Of a DNA stretch of 20,878 bases, positions 3,332-11,579 are shown one piece after another. Source of the stretch: Vulcanimicrobiaceae bacterium (GTDB taxonomy: Bacteria > Vulcanimicrobiota > Vulcanimicrobiia > Vulcanimicrobiales > Vulcanimicrobiaceae); the NCBI GenBank assembly GCA_046262595.1, contig JBHEMM010000019.1:24197-45074 (forward strand), in the 5' to 3' direction. The position numbers and the translations under genes were made by a program. Every line of letters starts with the position of its first letter. Positions within the stretch are counted from its first letter, which is position 1. The notes under the pieces are model-generated. The model was not told where the DNA came from. It did no database searches and was given only the letters and a program-made list of their open reading frames with translations.

Positions 3332-6202
3332 ATGCATCAGATCGCGCTGCTTCTTTCGCTCGTCACCTCGGCGATGTTCTCGCATTTAGACTTTCGCAAC
3401 ATCGGACCGCTGCCCGGACGCATCGATACGGTTTCGGGCGTTTCGGGCGATCCGCGTGTTTACTACGGCGGCGGTCTGGGCGGTCTGTTCAAAAGCAGCG
3501 ACGGCGGCGTTTCGTGGGAACCGGTTTTTCATCAGCAGTCGGTCAGTTCGATCGGCGCGGTTGCGGTTGCACCGTCGGATCCTTCGATCGTTTACGCCGG
3601 AACGGGCGAACCGAATCTGCGCAACGACGTCGCCTTCGGCAACGGCGTGTACAAGTCGAGCGACGCAGGCGCAACGTGGCAGCACGTCGGCTTGGATGCG
3701 AGCGGTTCGGTTGCGCGCATCGCGATCGATCCTGTTGATCCGCAGCGCGTCTTTGTGGCGGTCTCGGGCGATTTCTACGCTGCGAACGGCGAGCGGGGTA
3801 TCTTTAAGACAACCGACGGCGGCACGACCTGGCGCAAGGTGCTCTCCTCCGGCGAACGCACCGGCGCCTCGTCCGTCGCAATCGATCCGCGCGATCCCAA
3901 GCACCTGATCGCCGGCATGTGGGAGGCATGGCGCACGCCGTATCATCTCAACAGCGGCGGCAAAGACGACGGTTTATACGCGTCCTCCGACGGCGGCGAA
4001 CATTGGGCGCGTCTGCAAGGCAACGGACTGCCGGGCGGCACCATGGGCCGCATCGACGTGCGCTTCGCGCCCGGAAATCCCAAACGCGTGTACGCGCTGA
4101 TCGAGTCGAATGAGGGGACGCTTTGGCGCAGCGACGACGGCGGTAAAACATGGGCGGTGATCAACACAAGTCACGGTATCGATCAGCGTCCGTTTTACTT
4201 CACCACGATGGCGGTCGATCCGAAAGACGAGAATCACCTGTTCTTCATGTCGGTGCAGATGTGGGAGTCCAAAGACGGCGGCAAAACGGCGAAAACGTTG
4301 CGCGGCACGCGCGGGGGAGACTACCACGCCCTCTGGATCGACCCGCAGGATCCGCATCGCATGGTTGCGGGCGATGACGGCGGCATCCAGTACACCGTCG
4401 GCGCGCCCAAAGGCTGGACCAGCGCGGCGGTTGCCGTATCGCAGCCGTACCACGTGGATACCGACAACCGCGTTCCGTACACGGTGTGCGCGGAAACGCA
4501 AGATTCGGGCAGCGCGTGCGGTTCGAGTACGAACACGGCATCGAACCGCGGCGATTGGTTTTATGCGGGCGGCGGCGAGAGCGGATGGATCGTGTTCGAT
4601 CGCGGGAACTCGAATCTCATCTACGGCGACGGCTACCAGGGCGCCCTCACGGAATACGACCGCCGCACGGATCAGGCGCGTGCTATCGACGTATGGCCGG
4701 AGGATGCGATGGGTTGGGCGGCCGCGGCTCTGAAGTACCGCTTCCAATGGACTTCGCCGCTGGCAGTGAGCGCGCATCACGCTCACCGCCTGTTTATGGG
4801 CGGCAATAAAGTGTTCGCAACGGACGACGGCGGCCAGCATTGGCGCGCGATCAGCGGCGATCTCACCCGAAATGCGAAGCAGTTTGAGCAGTTTTCCGGA
4901 GGTCTGACGCGCGATAACACCAGCGTCGAATACTACGACACGGTTTTCAGCATTGCCGAGTCGCCGCTGCGCGCGGGCACGTTGTGGGCCGGCACCGACG
5001 ACGGGTATGTGTGGGTGACCCGCGACGAAGGCGCCCATTGGAACAACGTGACGCCGGCCGCAATGCGGGCTGACGCGCCCGGCGCGTGGGGCCGCGTGGA
5101 TGGCGTCGCGCCGTCGCCGTTCGACCCGGCGGTCGCATACATGACGGCGGATTATCACAAGTCGGGCAGCCGCGTTCCGCACTTGTATCGCACGGCAGAC
5201 TACGGGCGCACGTGGACCGCGATCGCGCAAACGCTTCCGCAGGACAGCTACGCGCGTATGGTCCGGCCCGATCCCGTGCGCCGCGGCATGTTGTACGCGG
5301 GAACAGAAACCGGCCTGTGGCTTTCATACGACGACGGCGCGCATTGGATGGCGCTAAACACGAATCTGCCCACCGCTCCCGTGTACGACTTTCACGTTCA
5401 GCGCCAATTCGATGACCTCGTGGTTGCAACGCACGGCCGCGGCATCTGGATATTGGACAATCTGCACGCCTTGCAGGAGTTGAATGATGCCGCCGCCGCG
5501 CAGCCGCTGCATCTGTTCACGCTGCGTCCTGCGTACCGTTCCGTGAGCGGTCAAGAAGCGCTGATCGACTTCTTCCTTAAGCAGCCGCCCGCGAGCGGCG
5601 GCGTACGCGTCGAAGTTTTGCAGGACGGGCGCGTGATCCGCACGCTTGCGGTGGAGAAGCCCGCGGCGGGCATCAACCGGGTGCGTTGGAATCTGCAATA
5701 CGAAGATCTCAAGCCGGTGAAAAACTACGTACCGTGGGGATCCGGCGGCTTCGACGGTCCGGCAGTGCTGCCGGGAAGGTACACGGTGCGCGTGACGGCG
5801 GGCGGCATCTCGCGCACGGGGAGCCTGCAAGTGCGGCTCGACCCTCGCGTACACGTCGCAGCAACGGCGCTGCGCGAGCAGTTGACGTTCATTCAGCGCG
5901 CCCGGGGCGACCTGTCCTCCCTTACCGCGCTCATCAACCGCCTCAATGTTCTCAAAGCGAAAAACGGCCGCAACGCGGCAAAGATCGATGCCTTGCTGCA
6001 CCGCATCTACGAGCCCGAGGTCACGGAAGGCGAGGATGCGCTTCGCTACCCGCAGCAAGTGTACGGCAAGATTGCCTACCTGGCCGGAAACGCCGGCGCG
6101 AGCGATGCGCGCCCTACGGCGTCCGACTATGCCGTGCTCAACGCGCTCGAAACGCGCGCGCGCGCGCTCGAACGGGAAGCCCGGTCGCTGACCACGCCGT
6201 GA
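3332..6202 (+). CDS. Secreted BNR/Asp-box (VPS10/sortilin-like) beta-propeller glycosyl hydrolase-like protein
   Basis: 956 aa. Many S/T-x-D-G-G-x-x-W Asp-box repeats, the family motifs FRNIGP, YAGTGE, QRPFYF and ATHGRGIWI, a hydrophobic N-terminus, and a C-terminal Ig-like (PGRYTVRV) plus helical region. Confidence 0.85.
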   Translation: MHQIALLLSLVTSAMFSHLDFRNIGPLPGRIDTVSGVSGDPRVYYGGGLGGLFKSSDGGVSWEPVFHQQSVSSIGAVAVAPSDPSIVYAGTGEPNLRNDVAFGNGVYKSSDAGATWQHVGLDASGSVARIAIDPVDPQRVFVAVSGDFYAANGERGIFKTTDGGTTWRKVLSSGERTGASSVAIDPRDPKHLIAGMWEAWRTPYHLNSGGKDDGLYASSDGGEHWARLQGNGLPGGTMGRIDVRFAPGNPKRVYALIESNEGTLWRSDDGGKTWAVINTSHGIDQRPFYFTTMAVDPKDENHLFFMSVQMWESKDGGKTAKTLRGTRGGDYHALWIDPQDPHRMVAGDDGGIQYTVGAPKGWTSAAVAVSQPYHVDTDNRVPYTVCAETQDSGSACGSSTNTASNRGDWFYAGGGESGWIVFDRGNSNLIYGDGYQGALTEYDRRTDQARAIDVWPEDAMGWAAAALKYRFQWTSPLAVSAHHAHRLFMGGNKVFATDDGGQHWRAISGDLTRNAKQFEQFSGGLTRDNTSVEYYDTVFSIAESPLRAGTLWAGTDDGYVWVTRDEGAHWNNVTPAAMRADAPGAWGRVDGVAPSPFDPAVAYMTADYHKSGSRVPHLYRTADYGRTWTAIAQTLPQDSYARMVRPDPVRRGMLYAGTETGLWLSYDDGAHWMALNTNLPTAPVYDFHVQRQFDDLVVATHGRGIWILDNLHALQELNDAAAAQPLHLFTLRPAYRSVSGQEALIDFFLKQPPASGGVRVEVLQDGRVIRTLAVEKPAAGINRVRWNLQYEDLKPVKNYVPWGSGGFDGPAVLPGRYTVRVTAGGISRTGSLQVRLDPRVHVAATALREQLTFIQRARGDLSSLTALINRLNVLKAKNGRNAAKIDALLHRIYEPEVTEGEDALRYPQQVYGKIAYLAGNAGASDARPTASDYAVLNALETRARALEREARSLTTP

Positions 6203-6211
6203 CGGGGCCGC

Positions 6212-6264
6212 TTGATGACTCCTTGATGGCAGAGGAGCGTGATTTTTGATGACATTTTTATGGC
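6212..6264. repeat. 19-bp imperfect direct repeat upstream of the WYL gene; candidate operator
   Basis: TTGATGACTCCTTGATGGC (6212-6230) and TTGATGACATTTTTATGGC (6246-6264), 15/19 identical. Confidence 0.5.
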
Positions 6265-6281
6265 CGGGGACCGGCGCATAG

Positions 6282-6296
6282 TGCCACAATTGTGGT
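6282..6296 (+). promoter_or_regulatory. Extended -10 promoter giving a leaderless WYL mRNA, overlapped by a 12-bp palindrome
   Basis: TGc-CACAAT (6282-6290), then 6 nt, then ATG 6297, with no Shine-Dalgarno. CCACAATTGTGG (6284-6295) is a perfect palindrome. Confidence 0.55.
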
Positions 6297-7292
6297 ATGG
6301 AACGCACGAACGAGCCGAAGATTGTGTTGCTGGTCCGGCTGCTCAACGCGATTGACGAAGGCCGCTTTTCGTTCGAAGAACTTAAAGACCGCATTGCCGA
6401 GGGAGAACACAAGCCGAGCACGCGCAGCCTGCGCCGCTATTTGGCAGTGCTTGCGGACGCGGGCTTCCCGTGGTACTTCGATCGCGCCACCAACACGTAC
6501 CGGTTTACCGAAGGTTACAGCCTCAAACGCCTGGAGCTCAACAGCAGCGAACTGTTCGGTCTGGTCGCGCTGCGCGCCATCAGCGCCAGTTTGAAGGGCG
6601 CCATCGGCACGTACGTTGACGAAGTGACCGCCAAGATCGTTGGCTCGAGCGGCAGCGGGGCGAAGGAACGGTTGCAGGCGCCCTCGCCGGTCGCGTTCCG
6701 CCTGAGCGAGATCGCGCTGGATGTGCAGGGAGAACAGATATTCAGCCGTCTCTCCTCGGCCGAACGCAGTTCGCGCAGTGTGCGGTTCCAATACCAGGAC
6801 AAAGAAGGCAATACGTCCACGCGCACGGCCGACCCCTACGGCTTTGTCGTGGGCGGCGGACGCGTGTACTGCGTGGCGCACGATCGCGACCGGCGCGGCA
6901 TGCGGACGTTCGCGGTCGACAACATGACCGACCTCACGGTGCTGGCGCAGACGTTTACCAAGCCGCAAAATTTCAGCGTCGAAGACTTTGCCTCGAGCTC
7001 GATCAGCGGCGTGCTGCACAGTTCGCAAACCGCGGAAGTGCGCGTGCGGTTCGCACCGCGCGTCGCGAAGGCGGCAATCGCCGCGCGCGTCGTGGCGGAT
7101 CGCGCCGTGAGCCGATCGGCCGACGGTTCGGTCGAGATAACGTACACCGTCGCGGACGTTGACGAACTGACGCGCTGGGTTTTGGGTTGGGGCGCACAGG
7201 CCGAGATCGTGGCGCCGGCGGAAGCACGCGCCAAAGTCCAGATGCTCATCTCCGAGATCGCGACGAAGTACGAACTTCCGGTCTCGCGCTAA
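6297..7292 (+). CDS. HTH-WYL-WCX transcriptional regulator (YafY/PafBC/DriD-like)
   Basis: 331 aa. N-terminal winged HTH (FSFEELK...STRSLRRYLAVLADAGFP), WYL domain (VRFQY...RTADPYGF...VYCVAHD...RTFAVDNM) and WCX C-terminus (WVLGWGAQAEIVAP). Confidence 0.9.
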   Translation: MERTNEPKIVLLVRLLNAIDEGRFSFEELKDRIAEGEHKPSTRSLRRYLAVLADAGFPWYFDRATNTYRFTEGYSLKRLELNSSELFGLVALRAISASLKGAIGTYVDEVTAKIVGSSGSGAKERLQAPSPVAFRLSEIALDVQGEQIFSRLSSAERSSRSVRFQYQDKEGNTSTRTADPYGFVVGGGRVYCVAHDRDRRGMRTFAVDNMTDLTVLAQTFTKPQNFSVEDFASSSISGVLHSSQTAEVRVRFAPRVAKAAIAARVVADRAVSRSADGSVEITYTVADVDELTRWVLGWGAQAEIVAPAEARAKVQMLISEIATKYELPVSR

Positions 7293-7305: not shown

Positions 7306-7339
7306 AAAAACCCCGATGACTTTTACGTCACCGGGGTTT
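7306..7339 (-). terminator. Intrinsic terminator of ncRNA-A, possibly bidirectional with the WYL gene
   Basis: Minus strand CCCCGGUGAC-GUAAAA-GUCAUCGGGG followed by UUUUU. The G-U pair forms only on the minus strand. Confidence 0.8.
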
Positions 7340-7501
7340 GAACGTATTCGCCGGTTTGCGCCTGTCAGAATTCCGGTAAAAGAAATCGACTGACGCCGCC
7401 GTACGTTTGGCCGGCTCACTCGGGACCGCGGCTTTCACCGCTGTCCGTCAACATGTTCCGGTTGCGGCTTTTACGTTTGCCGCCCTTCAATCGCTTGAAG
7501 T
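7306..7501 (-). ncRNA. Putative structured ncRNA-A (~196 nt), paralog of 7657-7857
   Basis: Bounded by a promoter and a terminator. Hairpins CUUCAA-GCGA-UUGAAG, GCGGC/GCCGC and a GAAA-capped stem. Shares ordered motifs with ncRNA-B. No conserved ORF. Confidence 0.75.
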
Positions 7502-7507
7502 TCTTGC

Positions 7508-7536
7508 ATGGTATCATCCGGAAAATCACTTTGCAA
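7508..7536 (-). promoter_or_regulatory. Sigma70-type promoter of ncRNA-A
   Basis: Minus strand TTGCAA (7536-7531)-N17-TACCAT (7513-7508) with an extended-10 TG. Predicted +1 is A7501. Confidence 0.8.
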
Positions 7537-7549
7537 GAGCGCGATGCAG

Positions 7550-7658
7550 CGACTCACAGCATATGCACAAAAACTTTCAGTTGTTCGCCGTTTGTGCACT
7601 CGGCGGAGCGCGCTCCTCAATTCGCGATTACTCACACGTTGTGCACGCAGGTGCATAA
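7550..7658. promoter_or_regulatory. DnaA-box-like cluster upstream of the ncRNA-A promoter
   Basis: Against TTWTNCACA: ATATGCACA 7561 (1 mismatch), TTACTCACA 7628 (1), TTGTGCACG 7639 (2), reverse TTATGCACC 7650-7658 (1), TTGTGCACT 7592 (2), CGACTCACA 7550 (3). Several are spaced 11 bp apart. Confidence 0.55.
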
Positions 7659-7695
7659 AAAAACAGAAGCCCCGAATGTTCATCCGGAGCTTCCG
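7657..7695 (-). terminator. Intrinsic terminator of ncRNA-B
   Basis: Minus strand CGGAAGCUCCGGAU-GAAC-AUUCGGGGCUUCUG followed by UUUUUUU. G-U pairs fix the minus orientation. Confidence 0.85.
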
Positions 7696-7857
7696 GCGTA
7701 TGTCTTTCTCGCTCGTGCCTGTTTGGCTCCGGTGAAGAAACCCTACTGACCACCGCTTGAAAGTCCGGCCGTTTCACTCGTATCGCCGTCATGCGGCTGC
7801 ATCGTCAACATGGCCCGGCCGCGACGACACGTTCGCCGCACTTCGTTTCATCGAAGT
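7657..7857 (-). ncRNA. Putative structured ncRNA-B (~201 nt), paralog of 7306-7501
   Basis: Bounded by a promoter and a terminator. Hairpins ACUUCG/CGAAGU and GCGGCGA/UCGUCGC. Shares CAUGUUGACG, CGAGUGA, GUCAGU, UUUCUU..ACCGGA, ACAGGC and AUACG with ncRNA-A in the same order. Confidence 0.75.
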
Positions 7858-7863
7858 GTCTGA

Positions 7864-7892
7864 ATGGTAGCACCGTACAAATGTCGTAGCAA
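7864..7892 (-). promoter_or_regulatory. Sigma70-type promoter of ncRNA-B
   Basis: Minus strand TTGCTA (7892-7887)-N17-TACCAT (7869-7864) with an extended-10 TG. Predicted +1 is A7857. Confidence 0.8.
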
Positions 7893-7905: not shown

Positions 7906-7957
7906 GTTTCCACCGCATTTCCACAAGAAAGACGCGTTATTCACATGGTTATACACC
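7906..7957. promoter_or_regulatory. DnaA-box-like cluster upstream of the ncRNA-B promoter
   Basis: TTATTCACA 7937-7945 (perfect TTWTNCACA), ATTTCCACA 7917 (1 mismatch), TTATACACC 7949 (1), GTTTCCACC 7906 (2). Confidence 0.6.
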
Positions 7958-8376
7958 TGCTTGCTCTGTTGCTCGCTCAAAGCATGTTCGCCGGTCTTCC
8001 TGTCGACGGTATCCGATGCGATTCGATGGAAGGTGCGCTCGAACACATCCACGCGCATTTGAAAATTACGGATGGCGGCCGCGCGCTGGAAATCCCCTCG
8101 GGCATCGGGATTCCGCAGGGCGGCCAGTGCCTGTACTGGCTGCATACGCATTCGTCCGACGGCCTCGTGCACATCGAGTCGCCGCTGAAGAAGACGTTTA
8201 GGCTGGGGCAATTCTTCGACATCTGGGGGGAGCCGCTGAGCCGCACGCAGGCCGCAGGAGCGCATGCGTCGCGAGGCCACGCGCTGCGCGTGACCGTCAA
8301 CGGAAAAGCCTGGAAAGGCGACCCGCGCACCATTCCGTTACGTGACCATGAGGAGATCGTCATCAACGGCTCATAA
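7945..8376 (+). CDS. Secreted His/Cys-rich hypothetical protein, possibly metal-binding
   Basis: 143 aa. Short signal-like N-terminus and the motifs HIHAHL, IPSGIGI, CLYWLHTH, HIESP and LGQFFDIWG. Ends 9 bp before hutH. Confidence 0.75.
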   Translation: MVIHLLALLLAQSMFAGLPVDGIRCDSMEGALEHIHAHLKITDGGRALEIPSGIGIPQGGQCLYWLHTHSSDGLVHIESPLKKTFRLGQFFDIWGEPLSRTQAAGAHASRGHALRVTVNGKAWKGDPRTIPLRDHEEIVINGS

Positions 8377-8385
8377 GGTATCCGC

Positions 8386-9930
8386 ATGGCAACTACCGCC
8401 GCCGCCATCGAACTCGACGGCAAACACCTCACCCTGCAGGCGATCCGCGCCATCGCTCAAGACGGCGCAACCGTCGCGATCACCGCCGGCGCGCGAGCAC
8501 GCGTTGCCGCGGCGCGCGCGCTGGTCGACGAAAAATTCGGTTTAGGCGATGCGATTTACGGCGTGACGACCGGCTTCGGCCGCTTGGCGAACATTCGGGT
8601 CGAACCGCACGATGCAAACCTCCTCCAGCTCAACCTCGTGCGCAGCCACGCCGCCGGCACGGGCGAGCCGCTGAGCATTCCGCATGTCCGCGCCGCGGGC
8701 GTCCTGCGCGCTAGTTCGCTGGCGGCCGGTCACTCGGGGATCCGCGAGAGCACCCTCGATCTGCTCGTCGGGCTGCTCAACCGGGGCGTCACGCCCGTGG
8801 TTCCGCGCCAGGGATCCGTCGGCGCCAGCGGCGATCTGGCGCCCCTGGCGCACATGACGTTGACGCTTATCGGCGAGGGCGAAGCATTTTATCAAAGTGA
8901 GCGCATGCCGAGCGCCGTTGCGCTGCAGCGCGCGGGCCTGCAGCCGATCGAGCTGGGTGCAAAAGAAGGACTGGCGCTCGTAAACGGTACTGAGGTGATG
9001 ACCGGCATCGCCGCCTTGTGCCAGCTGCGCGCCGAACGCCTTTTGGCGAGCGCCGACGTGATCGGCGCCATGTCGCTCGAAGCGTTTTTAGGAACGGACC
9101 GCGTGTTCGACCGGCGCATCAACGCACTGCGTCCGCATCCGGGTCAAGCACGCGTCGCCGACAATCTTCGCGCATTGTTGAGCGGTTCTCAAATTATCGA
9201 ATCGCACCGCGAATGCGGACGCGTGCAAGATCCGTATTCGTACCGCTGCATTCCCGTGGTGCATGGCACCGTGCGCGACGCCGCGGCGCATGCGCGCCGC
9301 GTCATCGAAATTGAGGCAATCTCCGTTACCGATAACCCGCTGGTTTTCCCGGAAGACGGCGAATTTTTGAGCGGCGGCAACTTCCACGGCCAGCCCATCG
9401 CGCTCGCATCCGATCTGTTGAAAATTGCGCTTGCGGAACTGGCCGGTATCAGCGAACGGCGTCTCTATCTGCTGCTCAATGCGGAAGAGCGCGGCCTGCC
9501 GCTGTTTCTCACGGGACGCTCGGGCTTGCAGTCCGGCTTGATGATCGTGCAGTACACCTCGGCGGCACTCGTCTCGGAAAATAAAGGCCTGGCATGGCCG
9601 AACAGCGTCGATTCGATTCCCACCTCGGCCGGCCAAGAGGATCATGTGAGCATGGGCATGACGGCGGCGGTTCATTTGGACCGCGTGCTGGAGAACGTCG
9701 AAGGCTCGTTGGCCTGCGAGCTGCTCGGTGCGCTCGTTGCGACGGATTTTCGGCGTCCGCTCAAATCGGGCGCAGGAACGCAGGCCGCGTTCGACGTGGC
9801 GCGCGAACGCATTGCGCCCTGGAGCGACGACCGCATTCCGGCCCCGGATATCGAAGCCGCGCGAATGCTCATTCGTTCCGGCGCGATCGCACAGGCCGCG
9901 GAGTCGGCGATCGGAACGGAGCTCGTATGA
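8386..9930 (+). CDS. hutH: Histidine ammonia-lyase
   Basis: 514 aa. YGVTTGFG, the MIO-forming [12 protein letters not shown], the HAL-type RSH, KEGLAL and QEDHVSMG. Confidence 0.95.
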
Positions 9931-11579
9931 TTGCCAAACCTCGCGCGGTGCGCGCGCCGCACGGCGCGCATCTGAGCTGCCAAGGCTGGCCGCAAGAAGC
10001 GGCGATGCGCATGCTGATGAACAATTTGGATCCGGACGTTGCCGAACGTCCCGACGACTTGGTCGTGTACGGCGGTAACGGCCGCGCAGCACGCTCGTGG
10101 GACGCGTATGAGGCGATTATACGCACGCTGCGGCGCTTGCAGAACGACGAGACGCTGATCGTGCAAAGCGGCAAGCCGGTTGCAGTGTGGAAGACGCACG
10201 CGCGCGCGCCGCGCGTGCTCATCGCCAATTCGAATCTGGTGCCGAAATGGGCGGACTGGTCGATCTTCCGCGAACTCGAAGCGAACGGCCTCACGATGTA
10301 CGGCCAGATGACGGCGGGATCGTGGATCTACATCGGATCGCAAGGCATCGTGCAGGGAACGTACGAGACGTTTGCGGAGCTCGCGCGCCAGCACTACGGC
10401 GGCTCGCTCAAAGGACGCGTTGCGCTCACTGCCGGTTGCGGCGGCATGGGCGGCGCGCAGCCGCTGGCGATCACGATGAACGAAGGCATTTGCCTGATCG
10501 TGGACGTCGATCGCTCGCGTCTGGACCGCCGCGTTGAATTGCGTTATCTGGATAAAGTCGCGGACTCGCGCGAAGAAGCGCTGCGCGAAGTGCACGCCGC
10601 TCGCCGCGAAGGGCGTTCCGTTTCGATCGGATATGAAGGCAACGCCGGCGATGAGTTCTTGGCGCTCCATGCCGCCGGATTGCGTCCTGATGCCGTGACG
10701 GATCAAACCTCGTCGCACGACATGCTCAACGGCTACGTTCCCGCCGGCATGAGCCTGCAAGAGTGCGCCGCGCTGCGCGCGCAAGAGCCGGAGGAGTACG
10801 AGCGCCGCGCGTATGAGACGGTCGCGCGCCACGTGCGCGGCATGCTGGCATTTCTTAAAGACGGTGCGGTCGTTTTCGACTACGGCAACAATATTCGCGC
10901 GATGGCTCAGCGTGCCGGCGTGCAGAACGCGTTCGATTTCCCCGGCTTCGTACCCGCTTTCATCCGTCCGCTCTTTTGCAAAGGCAGCGGTCCGTTCCGC
11001 TTTGCAGCGCTCTCGGGCCATCCCCAGGACATCGCGCGGTGCGACCGCGAGCTGCTTGAGCTATTCCCGGACGACACGCACTTGCAACGTTGGATCACCA
11101 TGGCGCAGGAACGCATCGCTTTCCAAGGACTGCCGGCGCGCATCTGCTGGCTCGGCTACGGCGACCGCGCGAAGGCGGGATTGCGTTTCAACGAACTGGT
11201 GCGCTCGGGCGAGCTCCGCGCGCCGATCGTCATCGGACGCGACCATCTGGACACGGGAAGCGTCGCATCGCCGTACCGCGAAACCGAAGCGATGAAAGAC
11301 GGCAGCGACGCGATCGCGGATTGGCCGCTGCTCAACGCGCTGCTCAACACCGCTGCAGGTGCCCATTGGGTTTCGATCCACCACGGCGGGGGCGTCGGCA
11401 TCGGCTACAGCACGCACGCCGGAATGGTGGTCGTTGCCGACGGGTCGGAAGATGCGCGCGAACGCTTGGAGTGCGTGCTTGCAACGGATTGCGGCATGGG
11501 CGTGGTTCGTCATGCCGATGCCGGCTATGAGATCGCAGTCGAAACGGCGGACGAAAAACACATCGACTGGCGGCTGTGA
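9927..11579 (+). CDS. hutU: Urocanate hydratase
   Basis: 550 aa from ATG 9927 (ATGA overlap with the hutH stop). [37 protein letters not shown] and HHGGGVGIG. Confidence 0.97.

Follow-up and report, generated by a model that had tools for sequence, protein, structure and literature searches.

Organization of the RNA locus

The window analyzed here is a stretch of 20,878 nucleotides from contig JBHEMM010000019.1 of a draft bacterial genome (called G000; 2.4 Mb, 122 contigs, 89.7% complete), and it holds two complete, homologous minus-strand units 356 bp apart beside a gene for a WYL-domain regulator. We refer to the copy proximal to the regulator gene as RNA A (7306–7501) and to the distal copy as RNA B (7657–7857). 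An earlier note on this DNA had described both as minus-strand units with the promoter pattern TTGC-N17-TGnTACCAT, a start at ACUUC, an intrinsic terminator and lengths of 196 and 201 nt, and each of these elements is present where it was placed. The note had also listed ordered motifs shared by the two copies, such as CCGG-NN-CAUGUUGACG and CGAGUGA-NN-CGGCC, and these too are found at their coordinates in both units, with CAUGUUGACG at 7455–7446 in RNA A and 7812–7803 in RNA B.

The putative promoter of RNA A (7536–7508; all features of the two units are on the minus strand) consists of the −35 element TTGCAA (7536–7531), a 17-nt spacer and the extended −10 element TGA-TACCAT, with the −10 hexamer at 7513–7508. 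That of RNA B (7892–7864) has the −35 element TTGCTA (7892–7887), a spacer of the same length and the extended −10 element TGC-TACCAT (−10 at 7869–7864). The predicted transcription start (+1) falls at ACUUC in both, at 7501 for RNA A and 7857 for RNA B. A simple sigma-70 scan of the units returned no promoter. Because TACCAT and TTGC depart from the consensus rules of that scan, the promoter call is based on a set of 101 unique homologous upstream regions aligned on +1, throughout which the −10 and −35 elements are kept at a fixed distance from the start. At the other end of RNA A, an intrinsic terminator (approximately 7340–7308) forms a 13-bp GC-rich hairpin followed by UUUUU ending at 7306. 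The terminator of RNA B (7695–7664) has 14 pairs followed by UUUUUUU and was picked up independently by a terminator scan; a terminator is present in every homologous copy that was read.

RNA A is composed of a 161-nt core plus its terminator and RNA B of a 163-nt core plus its terminator. They align over their whole length, with 61% identity over the 164-nt core. RNA A is 81–82% identical to the WYL-proximal copies of two genomes of the same genus, and RNA B is 79–80% identical to copies in other genera. As each is nearer to copies elsewhere than to the other, the duplication is old and both copies have been maintained. Both sequences fold more stably than shuffled versions of themselves, with minimum free energy z-scores of −5.3 for RNA A (0 of 200 shuffles fold equally well) and −2.3 for RNA B (5 of 200). 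The absence of a conserved open reading frame (ORF), as claimed in the note, is borne out by the indels that separate the two copies, which are 1, 2, 3, 4 and 5 nt long, and by the longest complete ORF of the core, which ranges from 0 to 46 amino acids over 89 homologues with no favoured length. At the sequence level, each unit has the makeup of an autonomous small RNA (sRNA) gene, with its own promoter and terminator around a noncoding stretch, and the element very likely gives a discrete transcript of about 200 nt.

The RNA is linked to a WYL regulator gene

The regulator gene (6297–7292, plus strand) is convergent with RNA A, the 3′ end of which lies 13 nt from the stop codon. Its product contains a WYL domain (Pfam, 6.6e-19) and a WCX domain (2.5e-16) and matches the sequences of PDB entries 8tp8 (6.5e-16; presumably DriD), 7p5x and 6sj9, making it a homologue of DriD and PafBC. 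No helix-turn-helix family was found at its N-terminus at E up to 0.001 in Pfam, nor was there an NCBIfam match; the alignments to PafB and PafC reach residue 42.

The adjacency of RNA and regulator proposed in the earlier note is real and conserved. Of 151 genomes of the bacterial family Baltobacteraceae, 145 hold the WYL orthologue as a single copy, and the RNA is present at 72 of the 80 orthologous loci that were compared (89 matches in all), down to a WYL protein identity of 57%. RNA and WYL gene are on opposite strands in 71 of these 72 loci, and the nearest copy starts 32–230 nt past the WYL stop codon in 66. Four of the eight loci that gave no RNA match have no downstream DNA. Tandem copies, each with its own promoter, occur at 15 of the 72 loci (two copies at 13 and three at 2). 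The wider region is syntenic in the order ClpC – WYL – RNA – hutH, and the pair of WYL gene and RNA is kept in at least nine loci that have no hutH in the flank.

Two loci depart from this arrangement. L087 is the sole orthologous locus in which only about 90 nt, and no RNA, separate the WYL gene from hutH, and is either a natural deletion or the pre-insertion state. In genome G048 (G048:C6:325731-327509), two weak RNA matches and, between them, two partial WYL matches form a mirror image across opposite strands, which is either an inverted duplication or an assembly palindrome.

Several features surround the start of the WYL gene. Upstream of it, in the window (6230–6296) and in loci L062–L141, are two 11-nt direct repeats of the TTTTGAGGYCA / TTTTGATGGCC type and a TGGCACAAT-like extended −10 element only 6–7 nt before the ATG, which suggests a leaderless mRNA and an autoregulatory site. 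A perfect 12-bp palindrome, CCACAATTGTGG, lies immediately before the start codon at 6284–6295. As an operator shared with the RNA promoters it was rejected, because none of 79 orthologous loci conserves it. TGGCAC upstream of the gene is spaced wrongly for a sigma-54 promoter, and that reading was discarded too. The DriD-type palindrome ATACGAC-N7-GTCGTAT reported in PMC10853764 is absent, and we regard its likeness to the RNA tail AUACGUC as chance.

A structured RNA family of Baltobacteraceae

BLASTN with the region gave matches in 14 of 41 relatives, all of them Baltobacteraceae, and nhmmer found one to three copies per locus, often in tandem. A covariance model, R1, was built from 20 copies (164 positions, 32 pairs). 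It scores RNA A at 132.2 bits (E 1.5e-32), RNA B at 145.2 bits (E 4.8e-36) and the best homologues in other genomes at up to 172 bits (E 3e-43). Across a family set of 151 Baltobacteraceae genomes (Ca. Eremiobacterota, formerly WPS-2; 78 genera, 96 high-quality genomes), full-length matches to R1 occur in 92 genomes and 44 genera, including 63 of the high-quality genomes, at one to three per genome. In a phylum sample, R1 matches 52 of 71 Baltobacteraceae genomes and 0 of 79 genomes from 20 other families. These searches were run under the stricter filters, and as far as searched the RNA is confined to Baltobacteraceae. A search beside the WYL gene of 20 match-less genomes of the family, run without the filters, brought up weak matches at the predicted position and strand in L171, L177, L166 and L169, and the hallmark promoter-ACUUCAGCAAUGAAG start is readable in L166, L167, L171 and L177; the tallies therefore understate how widely the RNA occurs in the family. 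Five unpublished genomes (G022, G023, G046, G137 and G150) are included in several of our tallies and seven more in that of the WYL orthologues, while every sequence-level claim is drawn from other genomes.

In Rfam 15, no family reaches its gathering score, whether in the window or across 18 homologous loci. Relaxing the threshold to E up to 10 brings up only four weak matches (BTnc005, with 19 bits where 174.8 are needed, CC3552, Hammerhead_II and P26), which we take as chance. Two of the checks that the earlier note had proposed come out in its favour: its novelty stands after the scan of Rfam covariance models, and collecting homologues for a covariance model recovered the family, with covariation supported on 89 sequences. 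Its central claim, a paralogous, independently transcribed and structured RNA family, is supported by the 92 genomes of 151, by this covariation, by the conserved promoter and terminator of each unit and by the lack of an Rfam 15 match. It is a previously undescribed structured RNA family. A literature search on regulatory RNAs of Eremiobacterota (WPS-2) found no such paper among those listed, and to our knowledge no regulatory RNA of this phylum has been studied so far.

The RNA folds into several domains with a pseudoknot

The consensus fold, the helices of which map onto both RNA A and RNA B, contains P1, P2, a P3–P4 domain, P5–P6 and a pseudoknot in which the P2 loop (ACGUAU) pairs with the 3′ tail (AUACGU). 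RNAalifold recovers P1, P2, P6 and the terminator; P3, P4, P5 and the pseudoknot were added to the structure by inspection. P1 (7500–7485 in RNA A, 7856–7841 in RNA B) is the 5′ hairpin ACUUCA...UGAAG, with 98.2% of cells paired over 89 sequences. It closes with G-C in 74 sequences and with A-U in 7, and its loop varies from 6 to 27 nt among homologues. P2 (7483–7464 in RNA A, 7839–7821 in RNA B) is the stem GCGGC...GCCGC, and its loop, AACGUA in RNA A (7477–7472) and CGUGU in RNA B (7831–7827), serves as the 5′ strand of the pseudoknot. The 3′ strand is UACGUU in the tail of RNA A (7346–7341) and AUACG in that of RNA B (7701–7697). Between these elements, the P3–P4 domain (7461–7411 in RNA A, 7820–7767 in RNA B) has a CCGG/CCGG helix, P3, that encloses the junction CAUGUUGACG, the P4 hairpin and the junction CGAGUGA, while P6 (7395–7359 in RNA A, 7752–7716 in RNA B) is an irregular hairpin with the conserved base GCGUCAGU/ACAGGCG, flanked by P5.

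Covariation was assessed on 89 R1 matches aligned to R1 (alignment A4), pseudoknot included, using 500 shuffles and slid controls. The alignment pairs 92.6% of cells, compared with 85.6% in shuffles and 26–40% in the slid controls, although this percentage favours the model because the alignment was fitted to the model structure. Counts of double changes are less affected: both sides of the pair change in 27 of 38 pairs, compared with 17.0 in shuffles, and none of the 500 shuffles reaches any of the measures. By element, P6 is 96.5% paired and P3 is 91% paired, with both-side changes in 5 of 5 pairs. P5 uses many different sequences, and a scripted test found a helix of at least 5 bp in 65% of the 89 sequences (29% when shuffled). 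The pseudoknot has 90.6% of its cells paired and both-side changes in 3 of 6 pairs, and occurs in the compensated variants CGUGU/ACACG, UGUAG/CUACA and GUAUC/GAUAC. Furthermore, alignment columns 204/254 form a U-G pair in 82 of 89 sequences, which on the opposite strand would be an A-C mismatch, and therefore the G-U pairs fix the strand of the RNA. In one subclade, the P3–P4 domain and its junction motifs (CAUGUUGACG and CGAGUG) are swapped for another hairpin, which leaves P1, P2 with its pseudoknot, P5 and the base of P6 as the parts conserved throughout.

This fold bears on the fallback offered by the earlier note, a divergent 6S- or Ms1-like RNA that binds RNA polymerase, which is not supported. 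The 5′ end of the RNA closes a local hairpin of 5–6 bp, and several domains and a pseudoknot follow, with no rod around a central bubble. The 6S model (RF00013) has no match at E up to 10 between 7200 and 8000, and none in this incomplete genome. For Ms1, a model of which we take Rfam to include, no Rfam 15 family reached its gathering score and none of the four weak matches is Ms1. Full-length 6S-like matches lie elsewhere in three of five complete relatives (L059 in G009, 45.7 bits; L060 in G007, 43.1 bits; L061 in G018, 35.2 bits; gathering score 46.4) and are probably the true 6S RNA of this lineage. Because the fold is not rod-shaped and 6S-like candidates occupy other positions in relatives, identity with 6S RNA is unlikely, and with no Rfam match we reject it.

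DnaA boxes precede the promoters

Upstream of the promoters are arrays of DnaA boxes, a feature that the earlier note had missed. With the consensus, which we take to be TTATCCACA / TGTGGATAA, the 101 upstream regions contain 107 boxes at no more than one mismatch to TGTGGATAA between −130 and −36, where 200 shuffles contain a mean of 0.97 and a maximum of 6. All 107 are in one orientation and none in the other. They peak at −111, −89, −69 and −57, a phasing of about 21, 21 and 11 bp. At least one box is found in 76 of the 101 promoters when one mismatch is allowed and in 99 when two are allowed.

RNA B carries such an array (7957–7906), in which GGTGTATAA (−100, 7957–7949), TGTGAATAA (−88, 7945–7937), TGTGGAAAT (−68, 7925–7917) and GGTGGAAAC (−57, 7914–7906) share one orientation; the first three have 2, 1 and 2 mismatches, and the box at −57 was read by eye. 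The last two boxes form the double-box TGTGGAAATGCGGTGGAAAC at −68/−57, and the RNA B module TGTGGAAATGCGGTGGAAA has a close counterpart, TGTGGAGAATGCTGTGGAAA, in front of dnaA in this genome. RNA A has a weaker box-like pair (7569–7550), made up of TGTGCATAT (−68, 7569–7561; 2 mismatches) and TGTGAGTCG (−57, 7558–7550; by eye), which coincides with the family-wide box positions. The region upstream of dnaA in this genome holds TGTGGAGAATGCTGTGGAAAG and TGTGGATAAGTGCATAAG, and TGTGGATAAGTGCATAAG together with the module TGTGGAnAA-N3-TGTGGAnA is found upstream of dnaA here and in five of five complete relatives. A loose double-box pattern is not enriched in G000 (6 observed, 5–9 in shuffles), yet it matches both the dnaA upstream region and RNA B. 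One further double-box module, TGTGGAATTCTTGTGGA at G000:C27:22506 (plus strand), may by its sequence be another DnaA-controlled site.

The possibility that the locus is a replication origin was rejected, since the RNA loci of five complete genomes lie 0.7–1.1 Mb from dnaA and GC skew shows no switch at the RNA locus. We also rejected GAAGAACTTC in the dnaA leader as a pairing partner of P1, as it occurs in G000 only and in 0 of 5 relatives.

Dispersed copies lie upstream of other genes

Many genomes hold one more copy of the RNA elsewhere, whereas this genome has the main type only. These dispersed copies, a second type that was likewise missed before, have the same promoter and box array as the main type and are found just upstream of co-oriented genes; a WYL gene is near none of the ten dispersed loci inspected for one. 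In L143, L146, L149, L191 and L192, from three genera, an ORF for an OPT oligopeptide transporter begins about 35–80 nt after the terminator in the same orientation, and OPT follows after one intervening ORF in L145, L153, L190 and L199. The gene directly downstream in the same orientation is mutS in three of three genomes of genus g14 (L195, L196 and L197), where the RNA is away from the WYL gene, and a gene for a zinc-finger protein lies downstream in L161. Genes for proline dehydrogenase and a peptide-binding protein recur near dispersed copies, and in genus g59 a separate promoter-like site precedes the next gene. Two further downstream ORFs were judged by eye only: a 400-residue ORF in L194 that resembles a membrane transporter, with no Pfam match at 1e-5, and a glyoxalase-like ORF in L188.

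The terminators of the dispersed copies have short U-runs (GGGCUUUGUU), which suggests leakiness. Their loop CCUCACGG and stem GCCCG/CGGGC are conserved over several genera (L143, L145, L153, L155, L157, L159 and L194), a conservation that, judged from these alignments, exceeds the needs of a plain terminator.

Neighboring genes

The remaining genes of the neighborhood encode a ClpC-type ATPase (373–2871) and a BNR/sortilin protein (3332–6202) on one side of the WYL gene and, on the far side of the RNAs, hutH (8386–9930), followed by hutU and two amidohydrolases. Between the promoter of RNA B and hutH, a 143-residue ORF (7945–8376, plus strand) with no Pfam or NCBIfam match belongs to this neighborhood and not to the RNA. 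It has a hydrophobic N-terminus and ends 9 nt before hutH, and its ATG overlaps the DnaA-like box of RNA B at −88. The longest hutU ORF (9594–11579, plus strand) overlaps hutH by about 340 nt, and its urocanase domains do not begin before residue 119; the gene probably starts near 9930.

Interpretation of the RNA and its alternatives

Between a conserved promoter and a conserved terminator lies a conserved, structured and strand-specific element, present as old tandem paralogues with DnaA boxes upstream. Our preferred reading is an autonomous sRNA that probably answers to DnaA and acts in trans, and we give this reading as a whole a probability of roughly one half. Each copy is a module of same-orientation DnaA boxes, promoter, ACUUC start, pseudoknotted core of about 164 nt and terminator. 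DnaA, acting as a transcription factor, would set the rate of RNA synthesis, and the level of the RNA would then report the state of the replication initiator. The compact RNA, released at the terminator, would act in trans as a riboregulator. Tandem copies would raise the dosage or widen the response, given that box strength differs between RNA A and RNA B. Leaky termination would have two further effects, RNA antisense to the WYL gene at the ancestral site, which lies tail-to-tail with it, and expression of the next downstream gene at the dispersed copies. We consider it probable, judging by the boxes, that DnaA controls the RNA promoters. Action in trans after release stands close to an even chance. 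It is favoured because no co-oriented gene follows at the ancestral locus, the tandem units are complete, the dispersed contexts are varied and both Hfq and CsrA are encoded (each in five of five genomes checked, this one included).

A number of points weigh against this proposal. Where the transcript starts and ends, and indeed whether it exists, is predicted from sequence, as is the binding of DnaA, and the genome counts are drawn from related, non-independent genomes, in addition to the bias of the paired percentage described above. We found no target, seed region or protein partner, and no target prediction was made. With five helices, a pseudoknot and conserved junctions, the fold is more elaborate than that of most base-pairing sRNAs and resembles RNAs that bind a ligand or a protein. 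RNA A has weak boxes only, each with at least two mismatches; DnaA boxes are not enriched across G000 (158 observed, 205 expected), and no cluster of three or more at up to one mismatch occurs in that genome. Finally, an OPT ORF that begins about 35–80 nt past the terminator leaves no room for a promoter of its own, so at least five copies have the architecture of a leader.

This last point is central to the best-surviving alternative, a cis-acting leader that works as a riboswitch-like or protein-dependent attenuator. The core would sense a ligand and decide whether the terminator forms, thereby controlling the downstream gene, often OPT, at dispersed copies and a regulated antisense RNA to the WYL gene at the main locus. 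The several helices, the pseudoknot and the highly conserved junction nucleotides speak for this view, and the 3′ strand of the pseudoknot lies only 3–4 nt from the terminator stem. The five OPT genes in three genera, the four more after one ORF, the mutS genes of one genus and the U-runs of the dispersed terminators fit this view as well. We nevertheless think it unlikely. At the main locus a leader has no co-oriented gene to act on, since the downstream gene is convergent, with the RNA opposite the WYL strand in all but one of the 72 loci, and each tandem unit has a full promoter. The downstream genes have no common function, and that of one genus has a promoter-like site of its own. No conserved antiterminator pairing was seen by inspection of the alignments, the only way in which it was sought, and candidate pairings between P6 and the terminator differ between the two copy types. 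Replacement of the P3–P4 domain and its junction motifs in one subclade also speaks against a leader.

Somewhat less probable still is that the RNA binds a protein, either forming a particle with it or sequestering it, the candidates being the WYL regulator, DnaA, CsrA and, as for 6S, RNA polymerase. The compact, conserved fold would suit this role, and the tail-to-tail arrangement with the WYL gene at 72 of 80 loci points to the regulator: weak homologues occupy the same place where the WYL protein is only about 50% identical, and the pairing survives where hutH is gone from the flank. Additionally, DriD and PafBC are reported to bind single-stranded DNA through the WYL domain (PMC10853764; PMC11804915), so domains homologous to that of the regulator can, on those accounts, engage single-stranded nucleic acid. 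However, the adjacency may reflect vertical descent because the whole ClpC – WYL – RNA – hutH region is syntenic, the WYL orthologue is also found in genomes where no RNA was found, and the ten dispersed copies inspected lack a neighbouring WYL gene. As a target of CsrA, the RNA offers one or two GGA motifs only, far below CsrB-type sponges, and as a partner of RNA polymerase it is disfavoured by the lack of an Rfam match, the absence of a rod-like fold and the 6S-like candidates elsewhere.

That the locus is a conserved DNA element and not an RNA gene, for example a second origin or, like datA and DARS, a cluster of DnaA boxes, could account for the phased boxes and for the same modules at the dnaA/oriC region but is very improbable, as conservation and compensatory changes run about 200 nt downstream of the boxes within a promoter and a terminator, the G-U pairs fit one strand only, a P1 loop of 6–27 nt suits a hairpin and not a fixed operator, and the loci lie far from dnaA with no skew switch.

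The autonomous sRNA under DnaA control may also be extended to the genes around it, in a proposal that we hold to be unlikely. A DnaA-switched, pseudoknotted riboregulator would oppose or partner the adjacent DNA-damage regulator of the DriD/PafBC type, through convergent antisense transcription or binding to the WYL domain, and would gate genes for peptide and amino-acid uptake through leaky or ligand-dependent termination. If true, an RNA would directly connect replication status with the non-SOS damage response and with nutrient import in a phylum that is uncultured, and it might also be a new riboswitch class. The position of the RNA beside such a regulator and before transporter genes provides hypotheses that can be tested in vitro without culture.

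Comparison with known systems

Eremiobacterota (WPS-2) are abundant in soils and bogs and almost entirely uncultured. The covariance model presented here separates one bacterial family from the rest of this phylum, and the RNA family is ready for Rfam as it is. DnaA is a known transcription factor for a few protein genes, and a literature search for sRNA genes under DnaA control found none among the papers listed. The arrays of DnaA boxes are the unusual part of the system, and if they are confirmed, the RNA would be an output of the replication initiator. We expect the family to interest specialists in RNA and in replication control, an interest limited by the uncultured and narrow range of hosts and by a transcript that is predicted from sequence.

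Among orphan bacterial RNAs with complex folds, the raiA motif RNA, OLE, ROOL and GOLLD, all of them in Rfam, share with RNA A and RNA B a strong covariation, conserved unpaired nucleotides, a narrow taxonomic range and an unassigned function. RNA A and RNA B are smaller than OLE, ROOL and GOLLD and differ from all four in fold and phylum, and a promoter with DnaA boxes is found only in the present family. The 6S (RF00013) and Ms1 RNAs are similar in size, about 190 nt, and in being encoded by a stand-alone gene with its own promoter and terminator, but their models do not match RNA A or RNA B, the ends of which do not pair into a rod.

Riboswitch-controlled antisense RNAs offer a parallel to the main locus. 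Examples are the B12 riboswitch and AspocR opposite pocR in Listeria and the S-box antisense RNA of Clostridium acetobutylicum. Here, too, a structured RNA and a terminator face the 3′ end of a regulator gene, and read-through would be antisense to it. RNA A and RNA B differ in their own, predicted factor-controlled promoters, in being complete tandem units and in having dispersed copies in other contexts. A parallel to the proposed control is CcnA of Caulobacter, reported as a CtrA-dependent sRNA located at the origin (PMC8959179). On that account, both systems would couple sRNA synthesis to a master regulator that governs the cell cycle or replication, for RNA A and RNA B through the putative DnaA boxes. 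The two are not homologous, and our loci lie far from dnaA and carry boxes for DnaA.

The closest likeness is to sibling sRNA genes that are driven by one factor, such as OmrA/OmrB, PrrF1/PrrF2, Qrr1-5 and GlmY/GlmZ. As in these systems, adjacent paralogues of about 100–200 nt have their own promoters with sites for the same factor and end in Rho-independent terminators, and the promoter is as conserved as the RNA itself. There is no relation to them in sequence or in Rfam, the fold of RNA A and RNA B is far more elaborate, and DnaA boxes stand where the siblings have sites for two-component regulators. In kind, the family belongs with the factor-controlled sRNA genes of bacteria, among which its promoter, marked by DnaA boxes, is unusual.

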